Assembly: GCA_964405845.1 (NCBI GenBank) | Contig: CAYOPL010000009.1 | Location: 24,497 to 88,496 of the forward strand | DNA: 64,000 nt | From: an uncultured Dehalococcoidia bacterium | GTDB lineage: Bacteria > Chloroflexota > Dehalococcoidia > UBA6926 | Direction: 5' to 3' | In this document: in pieces, positions 1 to 59,472 of the stretch | Position numbering within the stretch: position 1 is the stretch's first letter | Layout of the letters: each line of letters begins with the position of its first letter | Made by a program: the position numbers and the translations under genes | Notes under the pieces: generated by a model | Told to the model about the DNA's origin: nothing | Seen by the model: the letters and a program-made list of their open reading frames with translations, nothing else | Databases searched by the model: none

Positions 1-655
1 CTGCAATATGGCCAACGTCCCTGCGCGTCAACGGACCCTCTCGCTGCAATAGGCGAGAGAGTATTCCTTGGATCAGATCTCCATCTACGTCCAAGACACA
101 ATGAAGGTAAAAGAACCTCTCTCCAGGAGTTACGAGATAAATGTTCGAGTCGGCGTTGAATTTCCTAATGTCCTCATCGGAAGTCCGTCTCAACCCGCGC
201 AATACCTTGCCCCGGTCCGTAAGGGTGTAGTTTTCGCGCCTCAACAGCTGTAGCCGTACACCCCAAGTTGGCATCTCGACATATACGGCATGCCTGTATC
301 CGGCAGTAGCCGCGTCTCCTGTGATTGCCCCTGACTGGGAAGGCAACAGAGGGTCCGAAAGGTACAAGTCCTGCAGTTCCACTGGCGCGAGCGGATCTTT
401 CCTTCCCCGATATCGATTACCACGGTAAACGCGGGCGTATTCCTGTACGCGGCCCTGAAAGCCGACTGGGATGCGGTGGAGCGCTGTGACTGCACTCTGA
501 AAGCGGTTAGACAGCCCCTCAAGATTTGTCCTGTTACCGGGGTGGGCCAGGGAACACACTACGCGCAGATGACCCAGCCTTTGCCATGAACGTCTCGCAT
601 AATCTATCCACCTCAATGTAGGGCGGCGTCGTGGAAATGGAGTACCCTCAGCCAT
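1..655 (-). CDS. hypothetical protein, 3'-truncated by window edge (N-terminal ~218 aa), in lower-GC DNA
   Basis: Own translation of the minus strand from the ATG at 655-653 runs stop-free to position 1: MAEGTPFPRRRPTLRWIDYARRSWQRL...FYLHCVLDVDGDLIQGILSRLLQREGPLTRRDVGHIA. It is absent from the ORF track because it has no stop inside the window. GC is ~50% against ~67% elsewhere. It has an hhLDVDGD (DxD) motif like nucleotidyltransferase or primase-polymerase motif I; the family is not recognised. Confidence 0.35.
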   Translation of the reverse strand, partial: MAEGTPFPRRRPTLRWIDYARRSWQRLGHLRVVCSLAHPGNRTNLEGLSNRFQSAVTALHRIPVGFQGRVQEYARVYRGNRYRGRKDPLAPVELQDLYLSDPLLPSQSGAITGDAATAGYRHAVYVEMPTWGVRLQLLRRENYTLTDRGKVLRGLRRTSDEDIRKFNADSNIYLVTPGERFFYLHCVLDVDGDLIQGILSRLLQREGPLTRRDVGHIA

Positions 656-1078
656 GCTAGTGCCGATTGAGTTTCTGCTCATGGGCATTATCTGACCTTC
701 CCAGACCCAAGGGGATGGCTCGTGGGTTTAGTTCAACCAATTGGCGCATCTCAGAGGCAATGCCGCAAGCTTGTGGCACATTGATGCAAACTTCAACTCT
801 CTTGTCTTGGGAGGTGAGTTGCTTGGCTCGGGAGGGTCCTTTACCGGGTGTCATAATTTGCTCCGTCGTTGGCTTGAGAGCCCGACAACTCATCTTACTC
901 CTCGGCGTGGAGAAGTGAGAAGCATCGACCGTCTGAATCACGTGTCTTGCATTCTAGTGCGCCACCAGATCTGGCCAAAGAGGAAAAGGTTGCTACACAT
1001 TGCCGGGCAACTGGGAGGACGCAGCGCTGGCGCTGCGTCCTCCCAGCTTTAGGATTGGACTGCCCAAGGCTCTCTCTG

Positions 1079-1430
1079 CTAGGAGTAAGCAGGAACTTCT
1101 ACCTCTTCTTCCTCCACCCGCTGCTGCTCAATTGACACAGCCCATTCGAAGAGGGAGAGGGAGGGTTTGCCGCCGTTATAGTGGCCCTTGGTTTTGGTCG
1201 TCGGCTCAGCCATGAACTCCGCCCAGGAGAAGGGCGACCGTTGCGGCTCGTCGGTGTCGGACTCCTTGTTGACGGCGCTTGGAGCGGCTGCTTGTACTCC
1301 TCTACCAGTTGCATCTCCACGATGGTAGGTGTACACAGCTGCGGAACCTGTCGGCTATCGTCGACAAGGTAGGATGCTAGGATGCGGACTCGGTTTCGAC
1401 TGCGCGGGCTTTGGCCATAAGCGCCATTTC
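1079..1430 (-). pseudogene. frameshifted remnant of a helicase 3' end (left copy of a ~300-bp direct repeat; right copy is 6095-6390)
   Basis: ORF 1079..1336 ends ...ESDTDEPQRSPFSWAEFMAEP...PSLSLFEWAV, matching the helicase C-terminus ...ESDADEPQRSLFSWAEFMVEP...PSLSMFEWAL. The upstream part of the match continues in another frame (ORF 1099..1743: SYLVDDSRQVPQLCTPTIVEMQL vs helicase SYLVDDGWKASKPITPSIVEIHP). DNA 1212-1260 is ~92% identical to 6177-6228. Antisense ORFs 1181..1372 and 6146..6337 also match each other. Confidence 0.5.
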
Positions 1431-1544
1431 GGGCATCTTCGCTTCGGACATTCGTTACCCCTCCGAACTCGAACCAACTGACTTGCCTTCTAACGTGCGA
1501 TGTCACTTTCGACCAAAAAGAGAATAAGTCCGCATACATGGCCC

Positions 1545-1592
1545 CGCAGGGGAGGGACACCAGAGCTGGTGTCCCTCCCTCGTCGTGATGTG
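1545..1592 (-). terminator. stem-loop (12-bp perfect stem GGGAGGGACACC/GGTGTCCCTCCC, loop AGAGCT) just downstream of the last operon gene; candidate operon terminator
   Basis: Plus strand reads gcaggggagggacaccagagctggtgtccctccctcgtc. It lies 20-60 nt after the stop of the 1608..2105 gene on the minus strand, with a T-run (CTCTTTTTGG) about 20 nt further downstream on the minus strand. It also coincides with the inner edge of the duplicated helicase-end repeat. Confidence 0.4.
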
Positions 1593-1607
1593 TGCTGTCG
1601 CGGAGCC

Positions 1608-2105
1608 CTAGAAGAGGTTCAGCGCCTGCTGCTGAGCCTCTTCGGTTTCCGTCTCGGTGGTCGCCTCCTGCTGACGTCTGCGCTGCCGCCGGACCGGGGG
1701 AGCTGGCCTCTCGTAAGCAGGATGTTGGGGGGACTCCTCCCAATTGGCCTTCGCCCTCTCGGTCACCGCCGCGACCTCCTGCGCCAGCGCAGGCAGGTCA
1801 TGGCCGTCGAAGGACTCGACGTGCGGGTCCGACGACGGCTGTTTTACCCCGATGACGGCCCTGCCTCCCTTAATGGAGAGGACGACCTTCAGCTCCTCTG
1901 CGGCGTCCGCCTCTGCCTCGGCGTCTGGCTTGTCCTCAGTGTCGGCAGCGCCCTGTTCGTCCTGTTCAGAGTTCCCGCCGGCGTCCTGCTCCTCGGCGGG
2001 GACAGCATCCGTGTCGTCCGTCTTGTCAGCCGCGTCGCCGAAAAGAGTGTCGTCCGCCCTCGGCGCGTCCGAGCGGACCGTTTCCGTTCCGTTGTCGTCT
2101 GGCAT
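1608..2105 (-). CDS. acidic hypothetical protein (165 aa), last gene of the Ubl/E2/JAB/E1 cassette
   Basis: ORF MPDDNGTETVRSDAPR...KVVLSIKGGRAVIGVKQPSSDPHVESFDGHDL... is very Asp/Glu-rich. It sits in the same orientation and is tightly packed with the upstream genes. Confidence 0.5.
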   Translation of the reverse strand: MPDDNGTETVRSDAPRADDTLFGDAADKTDDTDAVPAEEQDAGGNSEQDEQGAADTEDKPDAEAEADAAEELKVVLSIKGGRAVIGVKQPSSDPHVESFDGHDLPALAQEVAAVTERAKANWEESPQHPAYERPAPPVRRQRRRQQEATTETETEEAQQQALNLF

Positions 2106-2156
2106 TGTCCTCTCCTTTCCTCTATATGCTCCAGCGGTGCTACCGTGAACCGGTGG

Positions 2157-2546
2157 CTATGCCGCCAATCCCGACGACTCCCTCTTGATCTCGCCGATTG
2201 TCCTCGGCTCCCAGTAGAGGTCGCGTTCGATGGCGGGTACGCCGCCGAGCACCGTTGCCGCCGCCAACTCGGTCAGGTCGAAGTACCCCCACTCCTCCTC
2301 GAATCCCTGGACGAGGCCGAAGCACTCGCCGGTCTGGGCGTTCCATTCGGTGACGTACCAGCGCCAGCCGTTGTACGGGCAGAACAGCTTGGCGCGCGCC
2401 ATCACGTCGTCGGTGTTCTCAACGTTCTCGTTCGTGTAAAGGGCGGGGATCGTGTCCCCGAGCTCCGTCGGCATCAGCTTGTGCCTTCGCGCCCCGCTGT
2501 TCGGGTCCTGCCAGGTCGTGGTGGTTCCGTTATTCTTGTCGGTCAT
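2157..2546 (-). CDS. DUF2958-family protein (129 aa)
   Basis: Internal ATG at 2546 is preceded by GGGAGAG. Sequence LFCPYNGWRWYVTEWNAQTGECFGLVQGFEEEWGYFDLTELAAATVLGGVPAIERDLYWEPRTIGEI fits my recollection of the DUF2958 signature (FGL..G..ELGY..L.EL....G.P.ERDL.FEP.T), a family typical of conjugative elements. The longer ORF-track N-terminus (2999) is Pro/Gly/Arg-rich junk overlapping the ThiF gene. Confidence 0.6.
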   Translation of the reverse strand: MTDKNNGTTTTWQDPNSGARRHKLMPTELGDTIPALYTNENVENTDDVMARAKLFCPYNGWRWYVTEWNAQTGECFGLVQGFEEEWGYFDLTELAAATVLGGVPAIERDLYWEPRTIGEIKRESSGLAA

Positions 2547-2590
2547 CGGTCTCTCCCATTCCTTGATGCCTGTGCGTCCGGGTGCGCCGG

Positions 2591-3391
2591 TTAGTCGACG
2601 TAGGGCCCCACCGTCCTCTCCACCGCCTCCGGCGTGACGTGCCTGGGCGTGACCGTCCCCAGGTCCATGTCCAGGTAGAGGGCCATGAAGGGGCACGTGC
2701 CCGCCACCATACGGCGGACGACCTGGAGCACCAGCGACGCCATCATCTGGTTGATGGTGGGGTCCTGGTCGGTGAGGTCGAGGGCCGCGGCGCAGTCCAC
2801 GTCCGGCGGCCTGGTCGAGACGGCCGTCAGCAGGTCGGGACGCTGGATGGTGGGCGCCGGTGCCAGGTAACAGGTCTCGCCCTCGAAAGGGGGTTCCTCC
2901 CAGTCCACGCGACCGGAGACGTTGCCGACGAGCACCTGTCCCCAGTTGGTGTCGTTGCCCGCGTCGATGAGCCAGCGGGCCGGGTGGCCGGGCAGGCACT
3001 CGGCCATCGCCCGCCGTGCGGCGGCGTTGTCGGAGCAGCCGATGACAAGGCTCTCGCCGATGTCGATGAGGCCGGAATAGGCGTGTCCGTCGGGGCTTTC
3101 GTCGTACTCCCGGAAGGGGTAGACCGAGTAGCCCACGGGCCGGTCGTATGCGCGGGCGAGCCTGTCGGCCAGGGCTTCGCTCTTGAACCTGCCCACGTCG
3201 CCTGCGTAGAAGTTCTGGCGGAGCAGGTTGTGGGGCTCCACCCGGTCGTGGTCGACGAGGACGATGGTGGCCGCCCGCCCCTGGAAGAGGCGGCAGAGGC
3301 CCTCGGCGACGAAGCCACCGGTCCCGCCGCAGCCGACCACGGTGATCCAGGGGTTGTCCAGCAGGAAGGCGTTGTCCAGGTAGTAGGCCAA
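2591..3391 (-). CDS. ThiF/MoeB/E1-like adenylyltransferase (ubiquitin-activating-like), ~266 aa
   Basis: Rossmann motif VVGCGGTGGFVAEGL and ThiF-like core (LVDHDRVEPHNLLRQ). The ORF-track start at 3466 overlaps the JAB gene by 74 nt. A TTG at 3391 directly follows the JAB stop and has a perfect AAGGAGG 8 nt upstream, so translational coupling is likely (MAYYLDNAFLLDNPWITVVGCGG...). Confidence 0.8.
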   Translation of the reverse strand: MAYYLDNAFLLDNPWITVVGCGGTGGFVAEGLCRLFQGRAATIVLVDHDRVEPHNLLRQNFYAGDVGRFKSEALADRLARAYDRPVGYSVYPFREYDESPDGHAYSGLIDIGESLVIGCSDNAAARRAMAECLPGHPARWLIDAGNDTNWGQVLVGNVSGRVDWEEPPFEGETCYLAPAPTIQRPDLLTAVSTRPPDVDCAAALDLTDQDPTINQMMASLVLQVVRRMVAGTCPFMALYLDMDLGTVTPRHVTPEAVERTVGPYVD

Positions 3392-3392
3392 T

Positions 3393-4031
3393 TCAGTCAC
3401 CTCCTTCGAATGACTTGTTCGTGCCCGACTCCTCGCCAGCCAGCCTGAAGCCGGTCGGGAGGCCATCGAAGACGTGCGGCCAATCGAGTGGGGCGAAGTG
3501 GCCGTAGACGCCGACCCGTAAGCTCACCTCGGGCCGGTCGCTATCGAGGCGTCCGGCGACGCCGTACACGCGGAACCCCTGCTCGTCCCGATCGTCGGTG
3601 GCCGAGAAGAAGGAGCGCGAGCGTCCGTGTGAGTGGAACTCCGCGACCACCCCGGCGGGCGGCGCGTACGCGAGGGATGTTGCGGTCCCCAGCTGCGGGG
3701 GCACGACTAACCGATAGGCGCGCCCGTCCCATCGCACGGCGAAGAACTGTTCCGTGTCCGGGTCGTCCATGAACCAGCGCAGTCCCGTCTCGAACAGCCG
3801 AACCGGGATCGCCCCATGGGCAAGATCCACCTTCTCGGTGACGGATGCCAAGCCACGAACCGTGCAGGGGGCGGCGAGCACCCGCGCCGTCAGGTGAGCG
3901 TTCTCGGACTGGACGTAGAGGCCGTCCGCTCCGAGAACGTAGTCGAATCCGATGCCCTGGACACCTGCCAGCCCGTCCTTGCAATTGACGAGGTAGCCGA
4001 CCGGTCCGGGCCCGGCCTCAGCGGAAGGCAT
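3393..4031 (-). CDS. JAB/MPN (JAMM) metallopeptidase-like protein, 212 aa
   Basis: Canonical JAMM motif E-x(n)-HSH-x7-S-x2-D within VVAEFHSHGRSRSFFSATDDRDEQGFRVYGV. Start taken at ATG 4031 (MPSAEAGPGPVGYLV...), overlapping the upstream E2-like gene stop by 14 nt. The 408-aa ORF-track extension upstream is out-of-frame junk. Confidence 0.8.
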   Translation of the reverse strand: MPSAEAGPGPVGYLVNCKDGLAGVQGIGFDYVLGADGLYVQSENAHLTARVLAAPCTVRGLASVTEKVDLAHGAIPVRLFETGLRWFMDDPDTEQFFAVRWDGRAYRLVVPPQLGTATSLAYAPPAGVVAEFHSHGRSRSFFSATDDRDEQGFRVYGVAGRLDSDRPEVSLRVGVYGHFAPLDWPHVFDGLPTGFRLAGEESGTNKSFEGGD

Positions 4032-4728
4032 AGCCCCGTCTCCCCTGAGAGGCCGCGATGGCCTGGGCCACCGTGCACTGGGCAACCAGATCATCGAGTG
4101 GGTACTCGGTCTGTCCATCCAATTCCTCCCATAGCGCGTGCAGGTTGTCGGGGAACTTCTTCGAGCGGCTGCGGGAGTCCCCGGTGCCGGAGAAGTAGGA
4201 CTGGAAGAAGGACTCCGGTATGAGTCCGACCTCCTCCGGGAACTTGTGGCTACCGGGGCAGGCCCTCCCGTCCGAGAAGACGTTGAAGGCGGGCATCCGG
4301 TAGAGACGGTCATCAGGGTGCGTCGGACGCTCCAGTGCCGCGTAGACCCACGGCGCGCGGCCAGGCGAGCAGACGAAGACCAGCCCCGGCATGGGAAGCC
4401 GGAGGCGTGCGGGGGGCTTGAACGCCTCCCGTTGCAGGGCCACGGGCCAGACCCGTGGCGGTCTCCAGAGGGCGACCATCTGACCGGTTTCGCCCTGGTT
4501 CCACCAGAGGGCGTCCTTGGGCAAGAGGCCCGAGGAGAAGCCCAGGTGTTGGATGAAGACGTTCGCGATCTCGTCCGCCGAGACGGTCCTGACCCAGGTC
4601 GAGTCGCCCTCGAAACCACGCAGCAGGAGCGTCTCGCCGTACACCTCCAGTTGGAGGCTCAGTCTGTCCCTGGGTATGTCCGTCGATCCCGGCAGGGACC
4701 ATTCGGTCTTTTCCGCGTCAGTCGTCAT
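4018..4728 (-). CDS. E2-like (UBC-fold candidate) protein, 236 aa
   Basis: Start at ATG 4728 with AGGAGGAAAG 7 nt upstream. The segment YRMPAFNVFSDGRACPG resembles the E2 HPN(I/V)...DG.IC active-site region (P.FN....DGRAC) and offers a candidate catalytic Cys. Position between Ubl and JAB/E1 matches known bacterial Ubl-E2-JAB-E1 operons. The assignment is by motif and context only. Confidence 0.45.
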   Translation of the reverse strand: MTTDAEKTEWSLPGSTDIPRDRLSLQLEVYGETLLLRGFEGDSTWVRTVSADEIANVFIQHLGFSSGLLPKDALWWNQGETGQMVALWRPPRVWPVALQREAFKPPARLRLPMPGLVFVCSPGRAPWVYAALERPTHPDDRLYRMPAFNVFSDGRACPGSHKFPEEVGLIPESFFQSYFSGTGDSRSRSKKFPDNLHALWEELDGQTEYPLDDLVAQCTVAQAIAASQGRRGYAFR

Positions 4729-5563
4729 GGTTGCTTTCCTCCTGTTCATGTGGTTGTTCCGGGATGCGGGGCAGCACAAAGTCCAGCATCTCGGCGAATC
4801 GGCCGGGGAGGTTGTGCTCCAACCAGTCGGCCAGTGAGCACACAGAGTCCATCAGCGCGCTGGCCTCCCGCCACTCCTCCGTGCCGACGGCGATGACCTC
4901 GTCCTCCCATGCGTCGGCGAAGCCGTCAAAAGAGCCATCCTCGTAGTTGTGGTCGAGGAAGAAGTTACGGGTCCCGGCAAAGACCCATGAAACGGCCTGC
5001 GCCGCCCCCGCGAAACGGGTATCCTTCACGGCCTCGGCGAGGGCTTCCATGTGTATGCCGCCCTCGGGAATCCGCTCCAAGGTCGCTTGCGGGATACGCT
5101 GGGCCGCCGATTCCAGCCAGGCCGTCCGTATCTCGTCGGAATCCCCGTAGAAGAACTCCGGAGGTTCCACCAGCAACAGCAGGGCCGAGATGCCCTCCCG
5201 GTAGCCATTCCACAGCTCGTGGATGTCCTCGTAACCGAAGCCCATCAGGTCGAAGGGGATGCCCCTCCGCATCCAACTCCAGGGTGGCTCATCGTCGGCG
5301 TCGGCCCAGAATTCGATCGCCGGCATGTACAGAGGGAAGTGCTTTTCGCCGACGAGCCGGGCGAAATTCTCCACCCTGGCGCGCGCGTCGGGTGCCGACA
5401 ACGCCTCCTCCGCCTCATCGGGGAAGAGGCGGCGCACCAGCCCTGTGAACCATGCGTAGTCCTCGGCATATCCGATGATCGTGACGAGCTCCCGCAGCGA
5501 CGGCGGACGCCGCAGGAGCGATTGGGCGAGTCCGCTCAGGAGCGCCGGGGCCGCAGATGCCAC
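4718..5563 (-). CDS. hypothetical acidic protein, 281 aa, inside the Ubl cassette
   Basis: GTG at 5563 is preceded by AAGGAGG 7 nt upstream (MASAAPALLSGLAQSLLRRPPSLRELVTIIGYAEDYAWF...EQEESNHDD). The 358-aa ORF-track N-terminus is junk overlapping the upstream 76-aa gene. No family recognised. Confidence 0.5.
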   Translation of the reverse strand: MASAAPALLSGLAQSLLRRPPSLRELVTIIGYAEDYAWFTGLVRRLFPDEAEEALSAPDARARVENFARLVGEKHFPLYMPAIEFWADADDEPPWSWMRRGIPFDLMGFGYEDIHELWNGYREGISALLLLVEPPEFFYGDSDEIRTAWLESAAQRIPQATLERIPEGGIHMEALAEAVKDTRFAGAAQAVSWVFAGTRNFFLDHNYEDGSFDGFADAWEDEVIAVGTEEWREASALMDSVCSLADWLEHNLPGRFAEMLDFVLPRIPEQPHEQEESNHDD

Positions 5564-5766
5564 CGCAGCGCCTCCTTGAGCCGCCCCGTGGTCGAGGCGT
5601 AGTCCTGGGCCTGCGCAGAGGCCGTGTCGACATCCTTCTGTCGTGCGGCCGCGGCGTCCAGGTCGAGGGATCCGTCGGGTCGTGTGAGCTCCGCCGTGAG
5701 CTCGATGATGCGCAGTGCCGTTGGCGGGGTCTCCGCCAGCAGTCCGGCAAAGGTGCGGGTGTCCAT
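5536..5766 (-). CDS. small hypothetical protein, 76 aa
   Basis: ORF MDTRTFAGLLAETPPTALRIIELTAELTRPDGSLDLDAAAARQKDVDTASAQAQDYASTTGRLKEALRWHLRPRRS has plausible composition. It lies between the Ubl and the 281-aa gene, and its 3' end overlaps the next start by 28 nt. Confidence 0.4.
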   Translation of the reverse strand: MDTRTFAGLLAETPPTALRIIELTAELTRPDGSLDLDAAAARQKDVDTASAQAQDYASTTGRLKEALRWHLRPRRS

Positions 5767-5778
5767 CGGATGCCCTCC

Positions 5779-5976
5779 TTATGGGGTGGAGCACCCCTTG
5801 GTGCCCACCCGCCGCTGGAACTCGTAGATGGTGTCGTCGCCCCGTTTCGTCTCCTTCACCGAGGCGTTTGCGATCTCTCCGTAGAAATCGGCGAGCGTTC
5901 CCTTCACCTGGTCGACGGTCATCTCGGGGTCGGGGTCCGGGAACTCTCTGTCGTCGTACACAAACACGCGTGCCAT
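5779..5976 (-). CDS. small ubiquitin-like (beta-grasp, ThiS/MoaD/PRTRC-protein-C-like) protein, 65 aa, with C-terminal ...VGTKG followed by a 4-residue extension (CSTP)
   Basis: ATG at 5976 with GGAAGGAGAAG RBS: MARVFVYDDREFPDPDPEMTVDQVKGTLADFYGEIANASVKETKRGDDTIYEFQRRVGTKGCSTP. Size, charge pattern and the ...GTKG tail fit the small Ubls found next to ThiF/JAB genes on plasmids. Confidence 0.6.
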   Translation of the reverse strand: MARVFVYDDREFPDPDPEMTVDQVKGTLADFYGEIANASVKETKRGDDTIYEFQRRVGTKGCSTP

Positions 5977-6069
5977 GGTCTTCTCCTTCCGGCGTTGCCG
6001 ATACGTGATTCGTCGTGCGGGAGAGGCCGCCGCCACATGCGCGACGGCCTCTCCCGTGATCCTAGCGGC

Positions 6070-8349
6070 CTAGCGTCCCGCGCCGACCGTCTCCTGTTGC
6101 AGCGCCCACTCGAACATCGAGAGGCTCGGGGGCTGGGGCTTCCCGTTGCGTCGCTTCGACTGGACGGGCTCGACCATGAACTCCGCCCAGGAGAAGAGCG
6201 ATCGTTGCGGCTCGTCGGCATCGGACTCCGTGTTGGCGGCGGCCTGGAGCGGTAGCTCGGTCTCTGTAGCCGGATGGATCTCCACGATGCTGGGTGTGAT
6301 GGGCTTTGATGCCTTCCATCCGTCGTCGACGAGGTAGGATTCCGATTCGGTTTCGGCCGCGCGAGCTTGGGCGAAGGCGGCTTCCACCGTGTCGGCCGCG
6401 TCGTCCTCCTCGCTGTTGACCAGCTTGCGAGCCAGGGCGAGCATGAGGTCGTCGCCGTCGTCTCCGTAGGCGGCTAAACCGTCCTCGGGGAGTTCTCCCT
6501 CGACCGCCAGCGAGCTCTGCAGCTTCTGCGCGACCAGCTTCAGCGCGTCGGCCTGCAATGTGCTCCGGTAGGCCATGAAGATGACCTTCACGGGCCGCGT
6601 CTGGCCGATCCGCCACGAGCGCCGTGACGCCTGCCGCATGGTGTACACCGAGTAGTCCGTCTCGTACCAGACGATGGTCGGGAAATCCACGAGGTCGAGG
6701 CCGGTCTGGACGAGGCGCGGGTGACAGATGATGACATCCACGCCCTTCTTGACCTTCTCTGCGACCCACGCCTCGCGTTTCTCCGGCGCGACCGCGTCAG
6801 CCTTCATGACGGCGACCCTGAACCCGTGCCGCGTGAGCATGTCGTCCATGCGGCCAGTGATGTCCCGGGTTCCCGTATGCGTCGCGTAGACGAGGACACG
6901 CCGTCCAGCCAACCGTTCCGCGGCGACTAGGTCGAGCAGCGCCTTCTCCTTTGGGTACACGCGGTCCTCGGACAGCGGCGGCAACTGGATGAGCGGCTCA
7001 CCTGAGTCGGGATCGAACACCGTCTCGCCGCGCGTGCAGCCGTCGGGGTAGGCGAGGAGCGACTGCAGGTAGATCGAGAGCAACCGACGCGAGCCACCGG
7101 CCAGTGCCTTGACCATCGCGTGGCGCAACTTCTCGAACAGCTTGTCGTAGGCGGACTTCTGGGAGAAGCCCGTCGCGTCGGCGTCGCTGTCCATCGCGGT
7201 CAGCATGACCTGCTCCTCGTAGTCGGGCAGCCCGGACGCCACGTCCGACAGCCGCAGGAAGACCGAGTTGCCGATCAGGTGGAACAGTGCCGACGGCGCG
7301 AGGCCGGGGCGCTCCTTCACCGTCTTGCGGTACTTCCGGCGACGGCTGTTGCGGCCGTCCTCCATCGAGTGGTCGTCGTCCTTGCCGATGGTGTGCTCGA
7401 CGAACCCGTAGCGGTTGACCCACCGCCCTTCCTCCGACCTCCCGAACTCCGTCCGAATCGCCGGGCTGAACCGGTAGAGCAGGTGGAAGAGCGTGGATGA
7501 GTACCCGCCGAGCAGCGTGCCGGTGAGGGTGAGCGACCTCCCGCAGGCGTCGGCGAGCACGCCCGCCGCGATGCCCTGCGCGGATCCCCTTCCCTTGTAT
7601 TCGTGGACCTCGTCGCCGATGAGCAGGTCGAAGAATCCCCGCATGTGGTTCTTGACGTAGTCGGCGAGCGGATAGCGGCGCGGACCGGAGTTGTCGGCCT
7701 GCCAGAGCGGACCGCCGCATTCGGGACACTTCCGCTTGCGGCGGGCGAGGTCCTCATGCGAGAGGGGCACGCCGTCGGCGTCCACGATCTGCGTCGCGCA
7801 GCCGGGGCACGTCGGGATGCGGAATGGCTCCAAGGTCTCGTCCAGCCGCATCAGCCGTCCGCTCGAAACCGCCCAGCGGCTAACGACGGCGGGCTGCCAC
7901 CGGTAGGAGAGCTTGGCGCGCTCGCGGGACATGATGGCGAAGAGCGGGCCGAGACTGACTGCGCGGCCGAGGCTGTCGAGGTCCGTGATGGAACTGACGA
8001 TGACGGCCCTGGCGTTTGGAATCGTCTGCTCGACCTCCCTCTTCCACTTCACGGTGAGGTGGGGCGGAGCGAGGACGAGGATGTGCCGGAATCCGGCGGC
8101 GTGGGCGGCGGCCGTCGCGATGAACGTCTTGCCCGTGCCCATCTCGCCGACAACGGCAGTGCCCTGATTGGCCCTGAGCGAGAGCGCCGACCCGCGAATC
8201 GCGTCCGCCTGCGCCCCGAGCGGGGTGCGGAGAAGCGGTGGCAGCGGGACGGCGCTGGCGTCGGACGGCCGGTACAGGGGCGGGTAGGAATCGACGACGC
8301 GCTGCGCGATGGCGTCCCTGTAGGTGTCGATGAATTCGCCGAGGTTCAT
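6070..8349 (-). CDS. superfamily-2 helicase (SNF2/DEAD-like, DEVH box) with inserted C4 zinc ribbon, 759 aa
   Basis: ATG at 8349 with GGAAGGA RBS. Walker A GEMGTGKT, motif II LIGDEVHEYKG, zinc ribbon CPGCATQ...CPECGG, helicase-C region with motif VI SWRIGQTRPVKV. The acidic C-terminal tail (FSWAEFM...MFEWAL) is the segment duplicated at 1079-1430. Confidence 0.8.
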   Translation of the reverse strand: MNLGEFIDTYRDAIAQRVVDSYPPLYRPSDASAVPLPPLLRTPLGAQADAIRGSALSLRANQGTAVVGEMGTGKTFIATAAAHAAGFRHILVLAPPHLTVKWKREVEQTIPNARAVIVSSITDLDSLGRAVSLGPLFAIMSRERAKLSYRWQPAVVSRWAVSSGRLMRLDETLEPFRIPTCPGCATQIVDADGVPLSHEDLARRKRKCPECGGPLWQADNSGPRRYPLADYVKNHMRGFFDLLIGDEVHEYKGRGSAQGIAAGVLADACGRSLTLTGTLLGGYSSTLFHLLYRFSPAIRTEFGRSEEGRWVNRYGFVEHTIGKDDDHSMEDGRNSRRRKYRKTVKERPGLAPSALFHLIGNSVFLRLSDVASGLPDYEEQVMLTAMDSDADATGFSQKSAYDKLFEKLRHAMVKALAGGSRRLLSIYLQSLLAYPDGCTRGETVFDPDSGEPLIQLPPLSEDRVYPKEKALLDLVAAERLAGRRVLVYATHTGTRDITGRMDDMLTRHGFRVAVMKADAVAPEKREAWVAEKVKKGVDVIICHPRLVQTGLDLVDFPTIVWYETDYSVYTMRQASRRSWRIGQTRPVKVIFMAYRSTLQADALKLVAQKLQSSLAVEGELPEDGLAAYGDDGDDLMLALARKLVNSEEDDAADTVEAAFAQARAAETESESYLVDDGWKASKPITPSIVEIHPATETELPLQAAANTESDADEPQRSLFSWAEFMVEPVQSKRRNGKPQPPSLSMFEWALQQETVGAGR

Positions 8350-8454
8350 TGGCGTCCTTCCTTTCTTCGTGGTGCTATGGTGAATCGGCGAGGTCCCGTC
8401 GCCTTGTGGGGGGAGGCGACGGGACCCCGTGATGCGGCCTGTCTGCGAGGCAGA

Positions 8455-9495
8455 CTAGGCGGCGATGTCCGTGATCTCGCCGTCGTCGAGGCCGAGCGCG
8501 ACGACGGTCGTCTTGATCCTCTCGCGGAACACCTCCTTCTCCGGGGTGTCGTCCACGAGGACCATCTCCTTCGACGTGCGTCCCTTGACGAGGATGCGCC
8601 TGCCGTCGGCCTCGAGCTGGAGGTTGTCGAGGAATCCCGCCGCCACCAGCATGGCCATGTGGCCGCGCCGGAGCGGCATGAGCGGGCGGGTGGGGTCTTC
8701 CCTCGCCGGCCAGAGCGCGTCCGTGATCTGCGGGTTCGTCCACAGACCTGCCCGTCGCGCCTCGGCTGCGGCCTCCACGGGATCGACCGTCCGCCGCGTG
8801 AAGAGGATGTCTCCCGCCGCCGTCAGTTGGGGACTGAAGACCGGGTACTGGGACAGCCTGAGCGTCTCCGGTTCCCCCTCGGCCCACTCCTTGATTTGCG
8901 CCTCGGTGTACCCGTCTGGGCTGGGGTCGGCACGGCGGACGGCCATCAGCACGACCTGGTCGAAGGCCTCGCGCTCCGGTTCGGGGAACGCCCAGCATCG
9001 AACGCGGGTGTAGTGCGTCGACAGGAACCGCGCCGACACCGCTAGTCGCTGGCGCGGCACGATGAACACGAGCACCCCGCCGTCGATGAGGTACCGGGTG
9101 CAGTGGGTGAGGAAGGCATGTTCGACGCGCTTCTTGTCGTCGTTCTCCCAGTCGTAGGGAGGATTGAGGAAAAGCAGCCCAAACGCGCCGTTGGCGATGG
9201 ACGTCTGGAAGGCGTCCGCAGTGAGCACGTGATCGAGCCGTTCTGCGGCCTCCTCGGCGCGTTCCTTGTGGAGCTCGACGCCGTAGGTCTCGATGGCCGT
9301 GTTGCCGGCTTCGCGGAGCCGGTCGGTGAGGTGCCGAAGCGCGTCGCCTGCGCCGCAGCACGGATCGAGCGCGCGGATGGTGGCCTTGGCCCTGTTGACG
9401 TAGCCGTAGGGGGGGCGCATGAGGGTGGTGACCATGTTGACCACCCGATCCGGCGTGGGGTAGAAGCCGCCCTTGGCCTGTCCCGCAAGTCGCAT
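8455..9495 (-). CDS. N6-adenine DNA methyltransferase (gamma-class motif order), 346 aa, no restriction partner seen nearby
   Basis: ATG at 9495 with GAGAGGAG RBS. Motif X FYPTP, motif I DPCCGAG, motif IV NPPY (FLNPPYDWEND). It sits immediately upstream of the helicase in the same operon. Confidence 0.8.
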   Translation of the reverse strand: MRLAGQAKGGFYPTPDRVVNMVTTLMRPPYGYVNRAKATIRALDPCCGAGDALRHLTDRLREAGNTAIETYGVELHKERAEEAAERLDHVLTADAFQTSIANGAFGLLFLNPPYDWENDDKKRVEHAFLTHCTRYLIDGGVLVFIVPRQRLAVSARFLSTHYTRVRCWAFPEPEREAFDQVVLMAVRRADPSPDGYTEAQIKEWAEGEPETLRLSQYPVFSPQLTAAGDILFTRRTVDPVEAAAEARRAGLWTNPQITDALWPAREDPTRPLMPLRRGHMAMLVAAGFLDNLQLEADGRRILVKGRTSKEMVLVDDTPEKEVFRERIKTTVVALGLDDGEITDIAA

Positions 9496-9508
9496 GTATG
9501 TCTCCTCT

Positions 9509-9901
9509 CTAGTCCGTGTCCGTGTCGTTGATGCCGACGACCTCGCCGACGCCGTGCGTCTGCTGGAAGCAGAGCGCCTGGCTTGTCCTGAGACGGCTGG
9601 CGCAGGTCGTGCAGTAGACCGTGACGATGTCCGCGTCGCGGGCGACGGTGATGCGCCTGACGAGGATGACCCGGTCCGCGCCGATGCGGTGCGTGTAGAG
9701 CATCACCCGCCCGTCTCCCGACTCCTCCGGCGTGGCGGGCCTGTAGAAGTGGGGCTGTTTCGCGACGGTCAGGTGGGAGCCGCCGTCGTGTCCGCAGTAG
9801 GGGCAGATGCTGCCATCGAGGGCGAACCTCCTCCATGCGCGGACATTCTTCTGGCGGCGCTTGACGCTGGCCCGCCGGGCCTTCCTGAGTGTCTTATCCA
9901 T
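9509..9901 (-). CDS. zinc-ribbon protein, 130 aa
   Basis: Internal ATG at 9901 (GAGGGGGA RBS) lies 4 nt after the stop of the upstream gene. MDKTLRKARRASVKRRQKNVRAWRRFALDGSICPYCGH...VYCTTCASRL has two CxxC pairs. The ORF-track 262-aa extension is antisense junk. Confidence 0.5.
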   Translation of the reverse strand: MDKTLRKARRASVKRRQKNVRAWRRFALDGSICPYCGHDGGSHLTVAKQPHFYRPATPEESGDGRVMLYTHRIGADRVILVRRITVARDADIVTVYCTTCASRLRTSQALCFQQTHGVGEVVGINDTDTD

Positions 9902-10526
9902 CGGCGTCCCCCTCGTTCGGGAGGGTGAGCGCGCCCATGCCGACGGCCATCGAGAGGTCCTCGCGCAGCGCCTCGGAATCGGGAGAGCACCGGTAGGCAA
10001 TGATGCCCTCGGAATCGAGCTTGACGATCTCCTTCCTCCGCTGGCCGCGTTTCCAGAGCCAATCGGCCCAGTTGCGGTGAAGCGGTAAGGGGCTGCGCCG
10101 ATCCAGGAAGCGGTGGTGCAGCGCCGGAGCGGCGTCCTCGGACTCGGCGAGCACGAGGAAGTCGTCGCGCTCGAAGGCGTACTCGGCCATGCGGGTGAAG
10201 ACGAGCGCGTGCCAGCCGCCCGACGACGGGAGTCGCTGGATCTTCGTCGTCCACGTGCCGATGGTGGAGTGGGGGATGACGCAGCGCTCGTACCCACCGG
10301 AGACGGCCATGCCGTCGGCCCCGCGAATGAGGTGGGCGGGCTCAGGGGGCTGCTTCAGCATGGATGCCCAGATGGCCTTGAGCGCAGTCTGGGAGCCGAC
10401 CATCGACAGGAACCAGAGCGTGCCGTCCTGCGAATCGCGTGCGAAGGCGTCCGCGGTGGCGGAGAAGCCGCCCGCATTGACGGTGTAGAGCGACTCGGCG
10501 TCGATCATCGCAGATTGAACGGTCAT
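9894..10526 (-). CDS. hypothetical protein, 210 aa
   Basis: ATG at 10526 with AAAGGAAGGA RBS. Protein-like composition (MTVQSAMIDAESLYTVNAGGFSATADAFARDSQDGTLWFL...). No family recognised. Confidence 0.5.
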   Translation of the reverse strand: MTVQSAMIDAESLYTVNAGGFSATADAFARDSQDGTLWFLSMVGSQTALKAIWASMLKQPPEPAHLIRGADGMAVSGGYERCVIPHSTIGTWTTKIQRLPSSGGWHALVFTRMAEYAFERDDFLVLAESEDAAPALHHRFLDRRSPLPLHRNWADWLWKRGQRRKEIVKLDSEGIIAYRCSPDSEALREDLSMAVGMGALTLPNEGDADG

Positions 10527-10586
10527 TGGCGTGTCCTTCCTTTAGGGAACAGATTGTCCGGCGCGGGTCCTTGCCCGCGTGATGCC

Positions 10587-11096
10587 TCAGTCGCTGATGT
10601 GACCGAGGTCCTTGAGGCTCGCGAAGTGAACGCCGCCGATGACGACGTGATCGAGGAGGTCGATGCCCAGCAGCTTGCAGGCATCGTTGAGTTCCCTCGT
10701 GGTCCTGACATCATCGGGGCTCGGCGTGGGGTCGCCGGATGGATGGTTGTGGACGACGATGACGTTTGGCAGGCCGTCCACGACGGCGGGGCGGATCACC
10801 TCGGCGGGCCGGACTCTGCATTCGCTGACCGTCCCCTGGTAGATGACTCGTTGTCCGACGAGGTGGTTTCTCTTGTCGAGGAGCAGAACGCGTAACTGTT
10901 CCTGCGCGAGGTTGGCCATCTCGTCCCGCAGCGCCGCGTGCACGTCGGCGGGGCTGGAGATGATGACCCTGGAATTGTTCTGACTGGCGGTCTTCGTGCC
11001 CACCTCGTACCTGACCGAGAGTTCAGCGAGGAGCTGCAAGTTGGCGCGGAGCGCGTCGATCAACTCGGACGGCTCCTGAGCGCGTTTGCGCGGCAT
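10587..11096 (-). CDS. radC: RadC-family JAB-domain protein
   Basis: ATG at 11096 with GGGAGG RBS. Hallmark HNHPSGDPTPSPDD motif (RadC/JAMM-like) and a helix-hairpin-helix-like N-terminus. Confidence 0.8.
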   Translation of the reverse strand: MPRKRAQEPSELIDALRANLQLLAELSVRYEVGTKTASQNNSRVIISSPADVHAALRDEMANLAQEQLRVLLLDKRNHLVGQRVIYQGTVSECRVRPAEVIRPAVVDGLPNVIVVHNHPSGDPTPSPDDVRTTRELNDACKLLGIDLLDHVVIGGVHFASLKDLGHISD

Positions 11097-11207
11097 AGCG
11101 TGTGCCTCCCATTGGGATATCCTTAAAGGAAGGCGGGGCCGCTCCCGGTGGGGGAGTCGGCCCCGTGTCGCGTTCGGCCGGAGCCGAGCGCCGCGTGGTC
11201 TGTGCCC

Positions 11208-11603
11208 CTAGAAGGGCGAGCTGCCCGGCTCCACGCCGTCCTCGTACTCCGCTGAATCGTGGTTGGGCGAGCCGTTGCCGCCGCCGCCGTCGAGGAAGAC
11301 CACCTCGGCGGCGTAGATCTCGGTGGAGTAGCGGCGCGTCCCGTCCTTCGCCTCGTAGGAGTTCTGGGCGAGGCGGCCCGCGACGTAGATGCGCTGGCCC
11401 TTCTCCACGTACTGGTTGACGGCCTCGCCTAGCTTGTCCCACACCGTGACGGTGTGCCAATCGGTCTCGGTCTCGCCGTTCTGGCGGTGGCGGTCGGTGG
11501 CCACCCTGAGCTGCGTGACGGCGGTGCCGTTCGGCGTGTAGCGCATCTCGGGCTCGGCGCCCACGCGGCCCAAAAGCTCGACGCGGTTGATCGTGCGTGA
11601 CAT
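11208..11603 (-). CDS. ssb: single-stranded DNA-binding protein
   Basis: ATG at 11603 with GAAGGAG RBS. OB-fold signature MSRTINRVELLGRVGAEPEMRYTPNGTAVTQLRVAT...WHTVTVWDKLGE, a Gly-rich linker and an acidic tail ending ...SSPF (cf. the SSB DDIPF tail). Confidence 0.8.
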   Translation of the reverse strand: MSRTINRVELLGRVGAEPEMRYTPNGTAVTQLRVATDRHRQNGETETDWHTVTVWDKLGEAVNQYVEKGQRIYVAGRLAQNSYEAKDGTRRYSTEIYAAEVVFLDGGGGNGSPNHDSAEYEDGVEPGSSPF

Positions 11604-11726
11604 TTTTGCTCCTTCTCGCAATGGGATGCGATGTGAACTGGCGCGATTCGCGCCTCCTTTGGATGAGAGCGAAGCCGCTCCCGGTACGGGAACAGCCCCG
11701 TGTTGCGCCCTCTGAATGAGGGGCGG

Positions 11727-12779
11727 CTAGCTGACGCGGATGTAGTTCGAAGAACTCTCCGTGACTATCTGTGCGCGGGTCTTCGGATCCAGCAGGGCGT
11801 TGAGCCTCCTGTGGTCGACGGCGTAACGCCGCGACTGCACGAGGCTGACGGTGTGACCGTCGATCTCCGCCTTGCCGGAATCCCGGCCCGTCATCCACGC
11901 CTTGAGCGTGTTGAGCGCCGCGCGCTTGGCCTGCTCCGGCCCGCGCACCGCGTCCTGAGCCGACAGGTAGTCCGCGACCGCCTGCCGTGCTTGATCGTCG
12001 CTCACCTCCTCGACCTCGTGTTCTTCCTGTTGCAACTCGTCTGTCTCTGCCGCCTCTGGCTGGCACTCTGCCAGGAATGGACAGCTGCGGCACTGCCACG
12101 ACTCCGCTGTGAAGTCGCGGCCGGGCAGGGCGTCTGGGTCCGGCCCGACCAGCGTGTGATGGGCGGCGAGTTCTCCCAACCGACCGGAGACATCCTTGAG
12201 GACCTTCTCAAGCCGCTCGGCGGAAATGACCTCGTAGTCCCATACCCGTGAGCCCGTGTCCATGCAGGCGATGACGGCATCGCGTATCTCGCCGTAGGTT
12301 CCGAGGGTGTAGAGGGCGGCCTGCGCGACGGCGTTCGGATGGGAGCGTTCCGCACCGAGCATCTGCCAGCGCTTGAATGCGTCGGGGTTGCGGGTCTTGA
12401 CCTCGATGACCGCTTCCCCGGCGAAGATGGGCATGATTCCTGTGGCATCGGGATGGCCGGTCACCCGCAGGGTGGGGCCGATAGGGACGGACACGGGTGC
12501 GGGGTCGTCGCGGTCCGCGGGGTGGATCTCCCATCGGGCACGCTCCATCGCCCGGAGGACGACGGGCTCGAGCGCGGTCCCCGCCTCCATGATCGTGAGC
12601 GATTCGTCGGTCGGCGGGTTCGTGACGGGGTGTCCCGTCGCGGCGTACCAGAGGGCCCGGCGGCAGTCGCCCGCCGCCGATGCGCGGACCTCCAGCACAC
12701 CGTCCTGCGTGAACTGCGCGGCGGGCCGCGAGTACGCGTCCGCCATGTCGGTCGTCTGTTTCTGGATTGTGTCTCTCAT
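11727..12779 (-). CDS. PD-(D/E)XK nuclease of the Cas4/RecB-like Fe-S type, 350 aa; putative exonuclease partner of the Rad52-like annealase
   Basis: ATG at 12779 with AGGAGAA RBS. N-terminal Cys (AAGDCRRALWY), E-V-K catalytic triad context (AGEAVIEVKTRNPDAFKRW) and C-terminal Cys cluster WQCRSCPFLAEC, the 1+3 Cys arrangement of Cas4/AddB nucleases. The ORF-track 497-aa N-terminus is junk. Confidence 0.65.
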   Translation of the reverse strand: MRDTIQKQTTDMADAYSRPAAQFTQDGVLEVRASAAGDCRRALWYAATGHPVTNPPTDESLTIMEAGTALEPVVLRAMERARWEIHPADRDDPAPVSVPIGPTLRVTGHPDATGIMPIFAGEAVIEVKTRNPDAFKRWQMLGAERSHPNAVAQAALYTLGTYGEIRDAVIACMDTGSRVWDYEVISAERLEKVLKDVSGRLGELAAHHTLVGPDPDALPGRDFTAESWQCRSCPFLAECQPEAAETDELQQEEHEVEEVSDDQARQAVADYLSAQDAVRGPEQAKRAALNTLKAWMTGRDSGKAEIDGHTVSLVQSRRYAVDHRRLNALLDPKTRAQIVTESSSNYIRVS

Positions 12780-40054: not shown

Positions 40055-40278
40055 CCAATTCTTCTATAGCAAAGTGGTCCGTGGCCTTGTTCATGCCACG
40101 GAGTTGTCGGTTACTACCCCATTTATGATTGTGAAAACCAACACAAGCCGCTGACTAGATTCTTTTGTACACAATTTGGTATGGACTTTGGTCACAATTT
40201 TGAGGGGTGGATTGCCTATGGTTTAGGTGAGGAGAATGATGTGTGCACGGGATTCTCCTATTGGCAGGCTCATCCAGG

Positions 40279-41358
40279 TCAGCGTCCGGTCCAATCGTCA
40301 TGCCATCCTGCGCCGATCAGGCGGCCGGCGACTGTCACAACCCAGATACGCATGGAATCAGAAGTGAGCCACTCCCCCTCCTGCCGGACTGTCGACGCAC
40401 CCAGGCCGAGCAGATCCCTGATGGGTGTGTCAATGACTGCGGGGTTGACGTGATGGGCCACAGCGCCGGTTTCGTCGGCAATGATGATGGACCACTCCCC
40501 CTGGGCGGCGCCGGACGCGTAGTCGGTCACGGCGGACGCGGTCACTCCATCCAGTACGTTCCCGGGGTTGTTTTGCAGGTATTCGAGGGTTCCTTCCAGT
40601 CCAACTGACCAGAGCAGATCGACAACCGCGGCAACGACGTCCTGCGTGAACTGATCGACGTCGACGTACCAGCCGGAGGCGAACAGAAGCCCGTCATGCC
40701 GCATCACCCAAACGTTCTTCAACTGCACGCCGCCCGGATCACCCGGTGTGATGCTTCCGGTTTCCGGGTTCTGGTAGACATATGAAACCCACTTGCCGTC
40801 TTCGTCGGCGGAGAGCATATCCGCACGAAAGTTGTAACCGTTGGCGTCGATGCTCACCCAGCCCGATAAATCCAGCCCCCGGCGGCCGGGGTCCGGATGG
40901 GCGATCACCAGGCCGTTCTCGTCGACGATGAAGACGTACCACTGGCCGTCCACGCTCTGCGCACGGTTGTAATGAGCGATGGCAGCCTCCCGGCCTTGGG
41001 TTTCGTACCGGGAGATGGCGCTCTCGACGATGTACCTGGTGTACTCGGCGGGGTCCGATCTGGGAGGCGCCAGGGCCACCACGCCGCGAGCGATACGTTC
41101 AGCCTCGGCAGGCGTGAGACCCGCCTCCGGTTGTTCGATGGACGCAATGGCGGCATCGACAGTTTCCCGTACTTCCTCACCGGAGACTCCCGGTTCAGGC
41201 GGGGTCGGCTCAGGAGTCCGGGCAAGCTCCTCGCGCACAATTTCTTCCACGTCCTCGCGAGACAGGCCCGTCTCCTCGTTTCCACATGCGATCACCAGAG
41301 CAGCGATCAGCAGGAGGAGAACCGCGGTCACAGCAGCGAACGGCAGTCTGATATTCAT
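40279..41358 (-). CDS. lipoprotein with an internally duplicated sensor-like domain, 359 aa
   Basis: ATG at 41358. Signal peptide with lipobox LVIACG. Two related modules (WYVFIVDENGLVIAHPDP / WSIIIADETGAVAHHVNP). No firm family call. Confidence 0.5.
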   Translation of the reverse strand: MNIRLPFAAVTAVLLLLIAALVIACGNEETGLSREDVEEIVREELARTPEPTPPEPGVSGEEVRETVDAAIASIEQPEAGLTPAEAERIARGVVALAPPRSDPAEYTRYIVESAISRYETQGREAAIAHYNRAQSVDGQWYVFIVDENGLVIAHPDPGRRGLDLSGWVSIDANGYNFRADMLSADEDGKWVSYVYQNPETGSITPGDPGGVQLKNVWVMRHDGLLFASGWYVDVDQFTQDVVAAVVDLLWSVGLEGTLEYLQNNPGNVLDGVTASAVTDYASGAAQGEWSIIIADETGAVAHHVNPAVIDTPIRDLLGLGASTVRQEGEWLTSDSMRIWVVTVAGRLIGAGWHDDWTGR

Positions 41359-41370
41359 GAATCCAATCCC

Positions 41371-42477: not shown

Positions 42478-42529
42478 CGAGGGCGCTCTGCCGACGTGGA
42501 TGCAATCACATCATTCGGAGGCCGGGAGC

Positions 42530-58776: not shown

Positions 58777-58792
58777 ATCGTCCTCCTTGGTT

Positions 58793-59191: not shown

Positions 59192-59472
59192 GCCCACGCT
59201 GCCTCGTCCACGGTTCCGAAGACCTCAAGAGCGCTATCGAAACTCTCAGCCTCTTCCTCGCTCCATACACCGAACAGGTCGTCCAATGCAGACCCTATGG
59301 CGTTGGGGTTTCTCTTGCTGTCCGTTATCCCCGCTCCCTTCCTCAGCAGCCTCAGCGCGGCCTGATTAAGGGAGATTCCCTCCCGCCTGGCGAGGCTGTG
59401 CATAGCGGCGCTCAGCTCGTCGTCGAACCCTCTGACGGTGAGTTGGTTCACGTCACGCTCCTTGTGAGTCAT
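59188..59472 (-). CDS. vapB: VapB-type antitoxin (RHH/AbrB-like DNA-binding N-terminus)
   Basis: 94 aa immediately upstream of and coupled to vapC. LTVRGFDDELSAAMHSLARREGISLNQAALRLL. Confidence 0.5.
   Translation of the reverse strand: MTHKERDVNQLTVRGFDDELSAAMHSLARREGISLNQAALRLLRKGAGITDSKRNPNAIGSALDDLFGVWSEEEAESFDSALEVFGTVDEAAWA

Follow-up and report, generated by a model that had tools for sequence, protein, structure and literature searches.

The 64,000-nucleotide stretch of DNA analysed here (the window; contig CAYOPL010000009.1 of an uncultured Dehalococcoidia bacterium) carries the 3′ end of a helicase gene twice: once in the intact gene and once, in decayed form, on the far side of a cassette encoding a ubiquitin-like protein (Ubl), an E2-like protein, a JAB-domain peptidase and an E1-like protein. 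What event left a second helicase tail beyond this cassette? An earlier note on this DNA had read the repeat as the footprint of a 4.7-kb cassette insertion. That view is not borne out: the nearest cassette-bearing siblings of the window that can be read beyond the cassette, L002, L003 and L008, have no such remnant. The repeat is probably a scar left where two related integrative conjugative elements (ICEs) were joined illegitimately, at the level of microhomology, in a hotspot downstream of the helicase gene.

All genes of the helicase and cassette region lie on the minus strand. The features that make up the repeat are as follows.

6070..8349, minus strand: superfamily 2 (SF2) helicase of 759 residues (Pfam ResIII and Helicase_C), with 80 homologous loci at 61–96% identity in a scan of one genome per species
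6070..6426, minus strand: right copy of the repeat, the functional tail formed by the last ~105–119 helicase codons, c-type, ending in ...SLSMFEWALQQETVGAGR (tail alignment)
1079..1412, minus strand: left copy, a 5′-truncated, twice-frameshifted pseudogene of the helicase C-terminus, attributed to an n-type lineage and ending in ...SLSLFEWAVSIEQQRVEEEEVEVPAYS and a stop codon (alignments, segment identities)
1370..1385, no strand assigned: 8-bp tandem duplication (TAGGATGC, twice) that shifts the frame of the remnant and makes a stop codon (alignment, sequence)

The repeat pairs window positions 1203–1415 with 6167–6372 and resolves into three collinear direct-repeat blocks, 1203–1277/6167–6241 (75 nt, 89% identity), 1277–1332/6242–6297 (71%) and 1378–1415/6335–6372 (82%). 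Their spacings are 4964, 4965 and 4957 nt, and since these differ the blocks must be separated by insertions or deletions. Pairwise BLASTN of the two copies gives 109 identities in 132 positions (83%, E 2e-29), the longest exact run being 23 nt. Comparison of the whole window with itself, a check put forward in the earlier note, recovers the repeat at 74.4% identity over 215 nt (E 4e-31), the sole such repeat within the ICE part. The ~300-bp direct repeat described in that note is thus confirmed, but its peak identity is slightly lower than the ~92% claimed, at ~89–90% over 57–75 nt. The left copy is a 5′-truncated, frameshifted helicase-tail pseudogene, again as the note had it. It is without the first ~650 helicase codons and reads in three frames because of the 8-bp duplication and a 1-bp deletion near 1277, which is the second frame shift. 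A Logan contig from an independent assembly (L081, SRR16090826) is 100% identical to window 1–1992, junction and both indels included, and the 85-residue open reading frame (ORF) of the remnant has a single record, from that SRR16090826 contig.

The two copies differ in tail type. The ~90% core of the repeat corresponds to the coding sequence of the motif SLFSWAEFM, which is 84–92% identical even between elements whose helicases are only ~75% identical; because the peptide is conserved across the family, local identity of ~90% is no sign of recency. The last 123 nt of the remnant are 63–66% identical to the tails of the cassette-less loci L005, L007 and L009 (...FEWAVAVEQ...VAVPA; n-type), as against 40–43% to the c-type tails of the window, L001 and L003 (...FEWALQQETVGAGR), the value for the window's own tail being 43%. 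The top protein matches of the remnant are L005 and L009, and it keeps the peptide motifs SLFSWAEFM and SLFEWA. These comparisons support the reading that the two copies are helicase tails of two lineages united by recombination, and that no fresh duplication took place. A search of 5.8 billion proteins for the donor of the remnant yielded the identical ORF, one unrelated relic and nothing else, and metagenome scans with a degenerate n-type tail motif and with a 33-mer spanning the junction gave no match.

The surroundings of the joint are built from the following elements.

6018..6056, minus strand: GC-rich hairpin with a 16-bp stem, directly past the helicase stop and ahead of the Ubl gene (RNA fold −46.3 kcal/mol, z −3.15)
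1550..1579, minus strand: hairpin with a 13-bp stem past the cassette (RNA fold −38.9 kcal/mol, z −2.9)
1452..1545, minus strand: conserved intergenic module, copy 1, with a T-rich stretch, a promoter-like site TTGGTC-18-TAGAAG at 1516–1487 and a ribosome-binding site (nhmmer E 2e-30)
1377..1451, minus strand: chimeric ORF of 24 codons, in which 13 codons of gene X (MSEAKMPEMALMA) are fused at ~1412/1413 to the helicase-tail remnant (end of collinearity with L003, start of tail similarity)
1010..1047, minus strand: hairpin with a perfect 17-bp stem past the stop of the remnant (inverted repeat; RNA fold −54 kcal/mol, z −3.9)
951..1009, minus strand: conserved intergenic module, copy 2, with promoter-like TTGGCC-16-TAGAAT at 978–951 (nhmmer E 8.7e-21; promoter scan)
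1..854, minus strand: low-GC (54%) cargo to the right of the joint, comprising a 65-residue ORF (657–854) and the 5′ part of a gene for a 439-residue protein (1–688) (composition, ORFs)

The window is collinear with L002 (89%, window 16573–1482) and with L003 (88%, to 1413), and the cassette, the hairpin and the promoter module are all included. Between the 1550–1579 hairpin and the remnant lie ~135 nt of conserved promoter-like sequence and 13 codons of gene X. Modules of the copy 1 type are present in L002, L003, L005 (twice) and L009, and in L009 the module adjoins the helicase directly. The collinearity with L003 stops at window 1413, in the 13th codon of gene X, and similarity to helicase tails starts at 1415; the junction partners have only GCC(C) in common. 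On the other side of the remnant, L081 extends 1.1 kb beyond window position 1 and adds a weakly PLD-like gene after that for the 439-residue protein. No homologue was found by tblastx of window 1–1100 and tblastn of the L081 proteins against all 80 loci, so the right-hand cargo is unique among them.

The earlier note had also proposed that the cassette is portable and may be absent from siblings, and here it proved right. The complete cassette of eight genes lies after the helicase in 39 loci; another 39 are without it, and 3 have it in part. On a helicase tree (neighbour-joining, N-terminal 640 residues) at least 11 gains or losses of the cassette are needed, and cassette and helicase distances are incongruent. 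Thus L053 and L070, at a helicase distance of 0.25, have the closest non-sibling cassette (0.17), yet L008, at a helicase distance of 0.08, has a more distant one (0.19). A version with the helicase directly before the hairpin and no cassette, which the note had suggested looking for, was found in L009. There the helicase stop is followed by the hairpin, a promoter-like module (TTGGCC-N17-18-TAGAAT and a ribosome-binding site) and gene X (MSEAK...). The cassette appears, from this distribution, to be an old module of the ICE family that has often been gained, lost and exchanged. Within the helicase clade of the window it is present in six of six members, and the sister clade (L004, L005, L007 and L009) is without it. 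No second helicase tail occurs within 10 kb in L002, L003 or L008. Since the whole six-member clade has the cassette and these three siblings have no remnant, the linkage of helicase and cassette is older than the event that made the repeat.

Comparable remnants recur in the family. A profile of the last 62 tail residues, used in a six-frame search, revealed a second, 5′-truncated and decayed tail in eight other loci. These remnants follow the cassette in L040, in L072 and, with one shared junction, in L059, L071 and L079; they follow other cargo in L014, L035 and L078. The truncation points vary across the loci from ~25 to 150 codons. In L014 the repeat is 440 nt long and 76% identical, and the remnant matches tails from other lineages better (76%) than the tail of its own helicase (71%). 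The survival of short 3′ pieces only is consistent with joints formed near a homologous anchor, and also with long direct repeats being selected against.

The site at which these remnants occur holds varied cargo. Past its helicase, L005 carries a Mokosh system (MkoA E 1e-212, MkoB 4e-49; L005:12360–17970), and 35 ORFs from 19 loci of cassette-less siblings include type I and type IIG restriction-modification, MADS, Mza, PbeA and HKD plus Snf2 proteins. By its gene content, the stretch past the helicase is thus a defence-rich hotspot. At the window the joint has a conserved backbone on one side, the content differs between siblings, and the pieces can be assigned to separate lineages, which is the pattern of a hybrid joint at an ICE hotspot.

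A normal end of this operon consists of the helicase tail, a hairpin, an optional PRTRC-like cassette, a hairpin, the promoter module, gene X and variable cargo. The window has two such operon ends placed head to tail. The first, comprising the c-type tail, hairpin, cassette, hairpin, module 1 and gene X cut at 13 codons, belongs to the cassette-bearing lineage; the second, comprising the last ~105 codons of an n-type tail, a hairpin, module 2 and unrelated low-GC cargo, starts in a helicase that is, by tail type, of a cassette-less lineage. The joint could have arisen by a homology-anchored exchange with one illegitimate end, by deletion within a tandem pair of ICEs (compare L073, with a second helicase ~8 kb downstream) or by Campbell-type integration of a circle, and the orphaned tail and truncated gene X would have decayed since. 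Either a cassette-bearing ICE may have overwritten a resident n-type ICE from the left, or an n-type block with new cargo may have entered a cassette-bearing ICE. In either direction the joined piece is a whole arm of at least 15–17 kb, more than the 4.7-kb cassette. The suggestion in the earlier note that cargo was acquired by recombination at the helicase 3′ end, with an incoming tail, accordingly survives as far as the joining of tails from two lineages is concerned, but not as the acquisition of the cassette alone. The Rad52-type annealing protein, the Cas4/RecE-like exonuclease and the SSB of the element are possibly involved. We infer the mechanism of recombination; the anatomy of the joint, the lineages of its pieces, the presence and absence of the cassette and the recurrence of remnants are features of the sequences themselves.

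Several observations weigh against a joint between two ICEs. No sampled tail is near the remnant, the best reaching ~60% amino acid and 65–71% nucleotide identity, so its donor lineage is deduced from tail type. The motif segment of the remnant is nearest to the window's own c-type tail (51 of 57 positions, versus 48 of 57 for L005), which could reflect crossover or gene conversion there or could have no meaning. The pairwise identities of module 2, at 72–84%, are too close to assign it to the n- or the c-lineage, and the microhomology at the junction amounts to merely 3–4 nt in diverged sequence. The direction of the event and the second crossover are unseen, the window ending 1 kb past the joint and L081 adding 1.1 kb.

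Among the alternatives, the one that survives best is that a cassette-less n-type element gained the 4.7-kb cassette at the helicase 3′ end, the new tail being incoming and the left copy the displaced resident tail. This would account for the n-type character of the remnant, like that of the cassette-less sister elements, for the variable presence and phylogenetic mobility of the cassette, and for the remnants directly past the cassette in L059/L071/L079, L040 and L072. However, the resemblance of the window to L002 and L003 extends over at least 15–17 kb upstream, beyond the cassette alone, and the cassette is found in every one of the six clade members. The lack of a remnant in L002, L003 and L008 would require at least two losses in place of one late event, and the promoter module and first codons of gene X would also have to be part of the incoming piece. 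We consider a gain of the cassette at this point unlikely.

It is very improbable that the left copy is functional, as a small gene or a regulatory RNA that reuses the helicase C-terminal motif. Both SLFSWAEFM and SLFEWA are kept and the remnant lies behind a promoter-like module, but it has two frameshifts, a stop codon falls 24 codons past the sole start downstream of that module, the closest siblings are without it, and the remnants of other loci are cut at differing points and visibly decayed.

An assembly artefact, in the form of a chimeric join of ICE variants co-existing in a metagenome, might be suspected in a family derived from metagenome-assembled genomes (MAGs) with several ICE copies per genome. 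The junction, from codon 13 of gene X to the tail, nevertheless lies outside any sequence common to both partners, and misassembly induced by a repeat is unlikely for that reason. Moreover, the independent SRR16090826 contig is 100% identical across the joint over 1992 nt, and comparable remnants occur in complete long-read chromosomes, for example L014. We are confident that the joint is no such artefact. We think it just as improbable that the window duplicated its own helicase 3′ end in tandem and that the copies then diverged. Although the 57-nt motif segment finds its nearest counterpart in the window's own tail, identity over the 3′ 123 nt is only 43% to that tail versus 63–66% to n-type tails, and the remnant comes with a second, different hairpin and promoter module and with unrelated cargo.

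Least credible is that the cassette arrived by transposition or by site-specific integration, the repeat being a target duplication or an attachment site. Direct repeats do flank the cassette, but family searches gave no recombinase or transposase domain for any of the eight bracketed genes, the repeats are ~330 nt long, diverged (74–83% identical) and without an identical core, their longest exact run being 23 nt, a search for flanking inverted repeats gave none, independent events have different truncation points, and the closest cassette loci are without the repeat.

A more far-reaching version of recombination between ICEs can be envisaged, in which the DNA of the helicase C-terminus and the hairpin/promoter module serve as a portable homology arm through which the Rad52-type protein and exonuclease of the ICE capture and swap cargo, the Ubl cassette and defence systems included, independently of an integrase. 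We regard this as rather doubtful. If true, such exchange would explain the foreign-lineage remnants of at least seven independent events and the 41-nt repeat that flanks the Mokosh system of L005. A separate candidate, that conservation of the motif DNA marks a recombination site, was set aside: bias in GC content at third codon positions (GC3) and amino acid constraint explain the conservation, and the truncation points vary.

As a joint between ICEs, the scar is an ordinary product of inter-ICE recombination, a known kind of event. In the SXT/R391 ICEs variable DNA occupies hotspots, older insertions have left traces, and hybrids form from copies in tandem (Wozniak et al. 2009, PMC2791158; Garriss et al. 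2009 cited there). Recombination mediated by bet/exo is the proposed route by which they acquired the hotspot DNA (PMC2791158). The family described here resembles them in its conserved ICE backbone and intergenic hotspot, whose content varies between siblings and is shared across lineages, in the traces that insertions leave, in the several ICE copies per genome, and in having recombination functions of its own, here a Rad52-type single-strand annealing protein, a Cas4/RecE-like exonuclease and SSB and there Bet/Exo. It differs in phylum (Chloroflexota) and backbone. The hotspot boundaries of SXT/R391 are mostly precise and intergenic, whereas here the joints lie inside the coding end of the helicase, at variable points, and leave tail pseudogenes.

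Two further processes offer partial parallels. Homology-facilitated illegitimate recombination, reportedly described by de Vries and Wackernagel in 2002 for natural transformation, is said usually to entail deletion of recipient DNA. The likeness lies in a long homologous anchor on one side, here the helicase and upstream genes, and G+C-rich microhomology of a few bases on the other; the outcome here is instead a partial duplication. Genomic islands and phages that target tRNA or tmRNA genes integrate at the 3′ end of the gene and carry a replacement 3′ end. They share with the window the arrangement of an intact gene with a foreign 3′ end, cargo, and the displaced 3′ end as a direct repeat. 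In contrast to them, the bracketed DNA here has no integrase, and there is neither an identical core nor a fixed crossover point.

The eight genes between the two copies encode the Ubl, E2, JAB and E1 proteins and four others that always travel with them. The earlier note had described the 4.7 kb between the copies as exactly the Ubl/E2/JAB/E1 cassette. In the order of transcription, they are as follows.

5779..5976, minus strand: ubiquitin-like protein (Prok_Ub/PRTRC_C) of 65 residues (Pfam PF14454 E 4.7e-15; TIGR03738 47.9 bits, cut-off 45.95)
5536..5766, minus strand: 76-residue protein without a family match, at the same position in all cassette loci
4718..5494, minus strand: ~258-residue protein without a family match, kept in all cassette loci
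4018..4728, minus strand: E2-like protein (Prok-E2_D/PRTRC_B-like; Pfam PF14460 E 1.4e-14; TIGR03737 57 bits, cut-off 131)
3393..4031, minus strand: JAB-domain peptidase (PRTRC_A-like; TIGR03735 E 1.3e-12, 47.7 bits, cut-off 101.8; Pfam Prok-JAB 24.7 bits, marginal)
2591..3466, minus strand: E1-like ThiF-family adenylyltransferase (PRTRC_ThiF-like; TIGR03736 E 3.1e-26, 92 bits, cut-off 144.75; Pfam ThiF E 2.4e-14)
2157..2549, minus strand: DUF2958 protein (Pfam PF11171 E 2.4e-6)
1608..2105, minus strand: acidic protein of 165 residues without a family match, the final cassette gene, kept at the cassette end in siblings

Only the Ubl, as a PRTRC_C member, exceeds its curated PRTRC cut-off. The best matches of E2, JAB and E1 are PRTRC models, each under its curated cut-off (57/131, 48/102 and 92/145 bits, respectively), and the Pfam Prok-E2_D and ThiF domains pass their thresholds. 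No associated ParB-family or PRTRC D, E or F protein was found among the other cassette ORFs and nine neighbouring ICE ORFs. PADLOC models (2023 library, without Bil-type models) gave no match for Ubl, E2, JAB or DUF2958, and the adenylation core of E1 alone matches the E1–E2 (Cap2) models, partially, at 1e-12. By these matches the cassette would appear to be PRTRC-like but divergent. As in the PRTRC system (TIGR03734–03742) and the operons of Iyer, Burroughs and Aravind (2006, PMC1779556), Prok_Ub, Prok-E2_D, JAB and a ThiF-type E1 are combined in one operon on a conjugative element. The accessory genes differ (those for the 76-residue, 258-residue, DUF2958 and acidic 165-residue proteins), and the host is a member of the Dehalococcoidia rather than of the Proteobacteria. 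Ubl–E2–E1–JAB operons are known to differ in presence between close relatives and to occur on conjugative elements (PMC1779556).

The PRTRC-like ubiquitin cassette directly adjoins the hotspot at which siblings carry Mokosh, restriction-modification, MADS and other defence systems. By comparison with the siblings, this position favours the old idea that cassettes of this kind may act in conflicts between mobile elements and their hosts. Cargo turnover beside a core gene is documented here in a large, previously undescribed ICE family, with 80 loci and several copies per genome. The ICE family itself, the defence hotspot beside the Ubl cassette and the recurrent tail remnants are the more useful by-products of the analysis.

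The window carries an ICE of an uncultured member of the Dehalococcoidia. Genes for TrbL/VirB6, PrgI-like, VirB4/TraC-like ATPase, coupling and MarR-Replic_Relax proteins lie at 18.6–29.2 kb, and a divergently oriented module encodes a primase, a Rad52-type annealing protein, a Cas4/RecE-like exonuclease, SSB, RadC, a DNA methyltransferase and the helicase. Past ~31 kb, the gene content looks host-like and includes genes for a giant Calx-beta/SRCR protein, a two-component system and ImuB/DnaE2. Nearly all of the 80 loci are in MAGs of Dehalococcoidia/Chloroflexota, often with two to three copies per chromosome, and the hosts are apparently sponge-associated, to judge from record names such as 'APA_bin' and 'RHO1_bin'. 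Megablast of window 1–12000 against phage and plasmid collections found nothing, and a helicase search of viral contigs found no relative. Only 3 loci have a serine recombinase, sought as a marker of a nearby ICE end, less than 10 kb away; a terminal position of the helicase in the element is thus not the rule. In the window, large serine recombinase genes (55595–57559, plus strand; 57100–58776, minus strand) and a second MarR-Replic_Relax gene (60294–62102) together span 55595–62102 and point to another mobile element or an ICE end. A homologous recombinase lies 8–10 kb downstream of the helicase in L001 and L024.

The helicase C-termini of all 80 loci consist of a hypervariable linker, acidic or rich in His, Gly and Asn, followed by the invariant motifs SLFSWAEFM and S(L/M)FEWA, and the tail could serve as an interaction or transfer signal.

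The earlier note had placed a hairpin terminator with a 12-bp stem near the left copy. The strong hairpin is there, with a 13-bp stem, but its role as a terminator is not upheld, there being no U-tract directly after the stem. A scan for intrinsic terminators called none of the three hairpins, none has a T-run within 2 nt of the stem, and a T-rich stretch lies ~25 nt downstream of the stems. Homologues of the 1550–1579 hairpin with compensatory changes are present in L002, L003, L005 and L009. Together with these, the hairpins at 6018–6056, 1550–1579 and 1010–1047 have a common stem base, GGGAGG...CCTCCC, with upper stems that differ and show compensatory changes.

Individual loci show further rearrangements. 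In L071 (12356–13861) the cassette has an internal deletion extending from the gene for the 258-residue protein to DUF2958, and in L055 (12373–21626) it lies 2.5 kb away from the helicase, with the gene for the 258-residue protein split by a 2.4-kb insert. In L066 (6743–10001), and likewise in L075, L077 and L079, a ~3.3-kb insert interrupts the helicase gene after about codon 78 and codes for a group II intron protein (reverse transcriptase, maturase, HNH); L077 has a DDE transposase besides. The second helicase of L073 (20219–22138) suggests tandem or adjacent ICEs in one chromosome. L082 (9424–10192) holds a stranded, frameshifted helicase 3′ fragment (residues ~500–759) between a LysR-type gene and giant adhesin genes, with no other ICE genes near, and looks like an ICE relic.

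Copies of a 41-nt stretch of the hairpin/promoter module (CCACCTGCCCGGCTATGTATGTGGGCCTTTTTCTGTTTTTG) flank the Mokosh system of L005 as a near-perfect direct repeat. In L014 (12508–14704) the tail repeats bracket a pair of secreted-protein genes on the opposite strand and no defence system; by eye, the pair resembles the Cache (40279–41358) and CARDB (41371–42477) genes of the window. Downstream of the L014 remnant are a gene for a 360-residue protein without a family match and one for a HerA-like ATPase. Finally, window 31634–45982 encodes giant surface proteins of 2806 residues (Calx-beta, SRCR and SWM repeats) and 1150 residues (LRR, PKD), whose genes share internal and mutual DNA repeats (31639–32305 versus 42516–43183, 82%) and are typical host-association genes.

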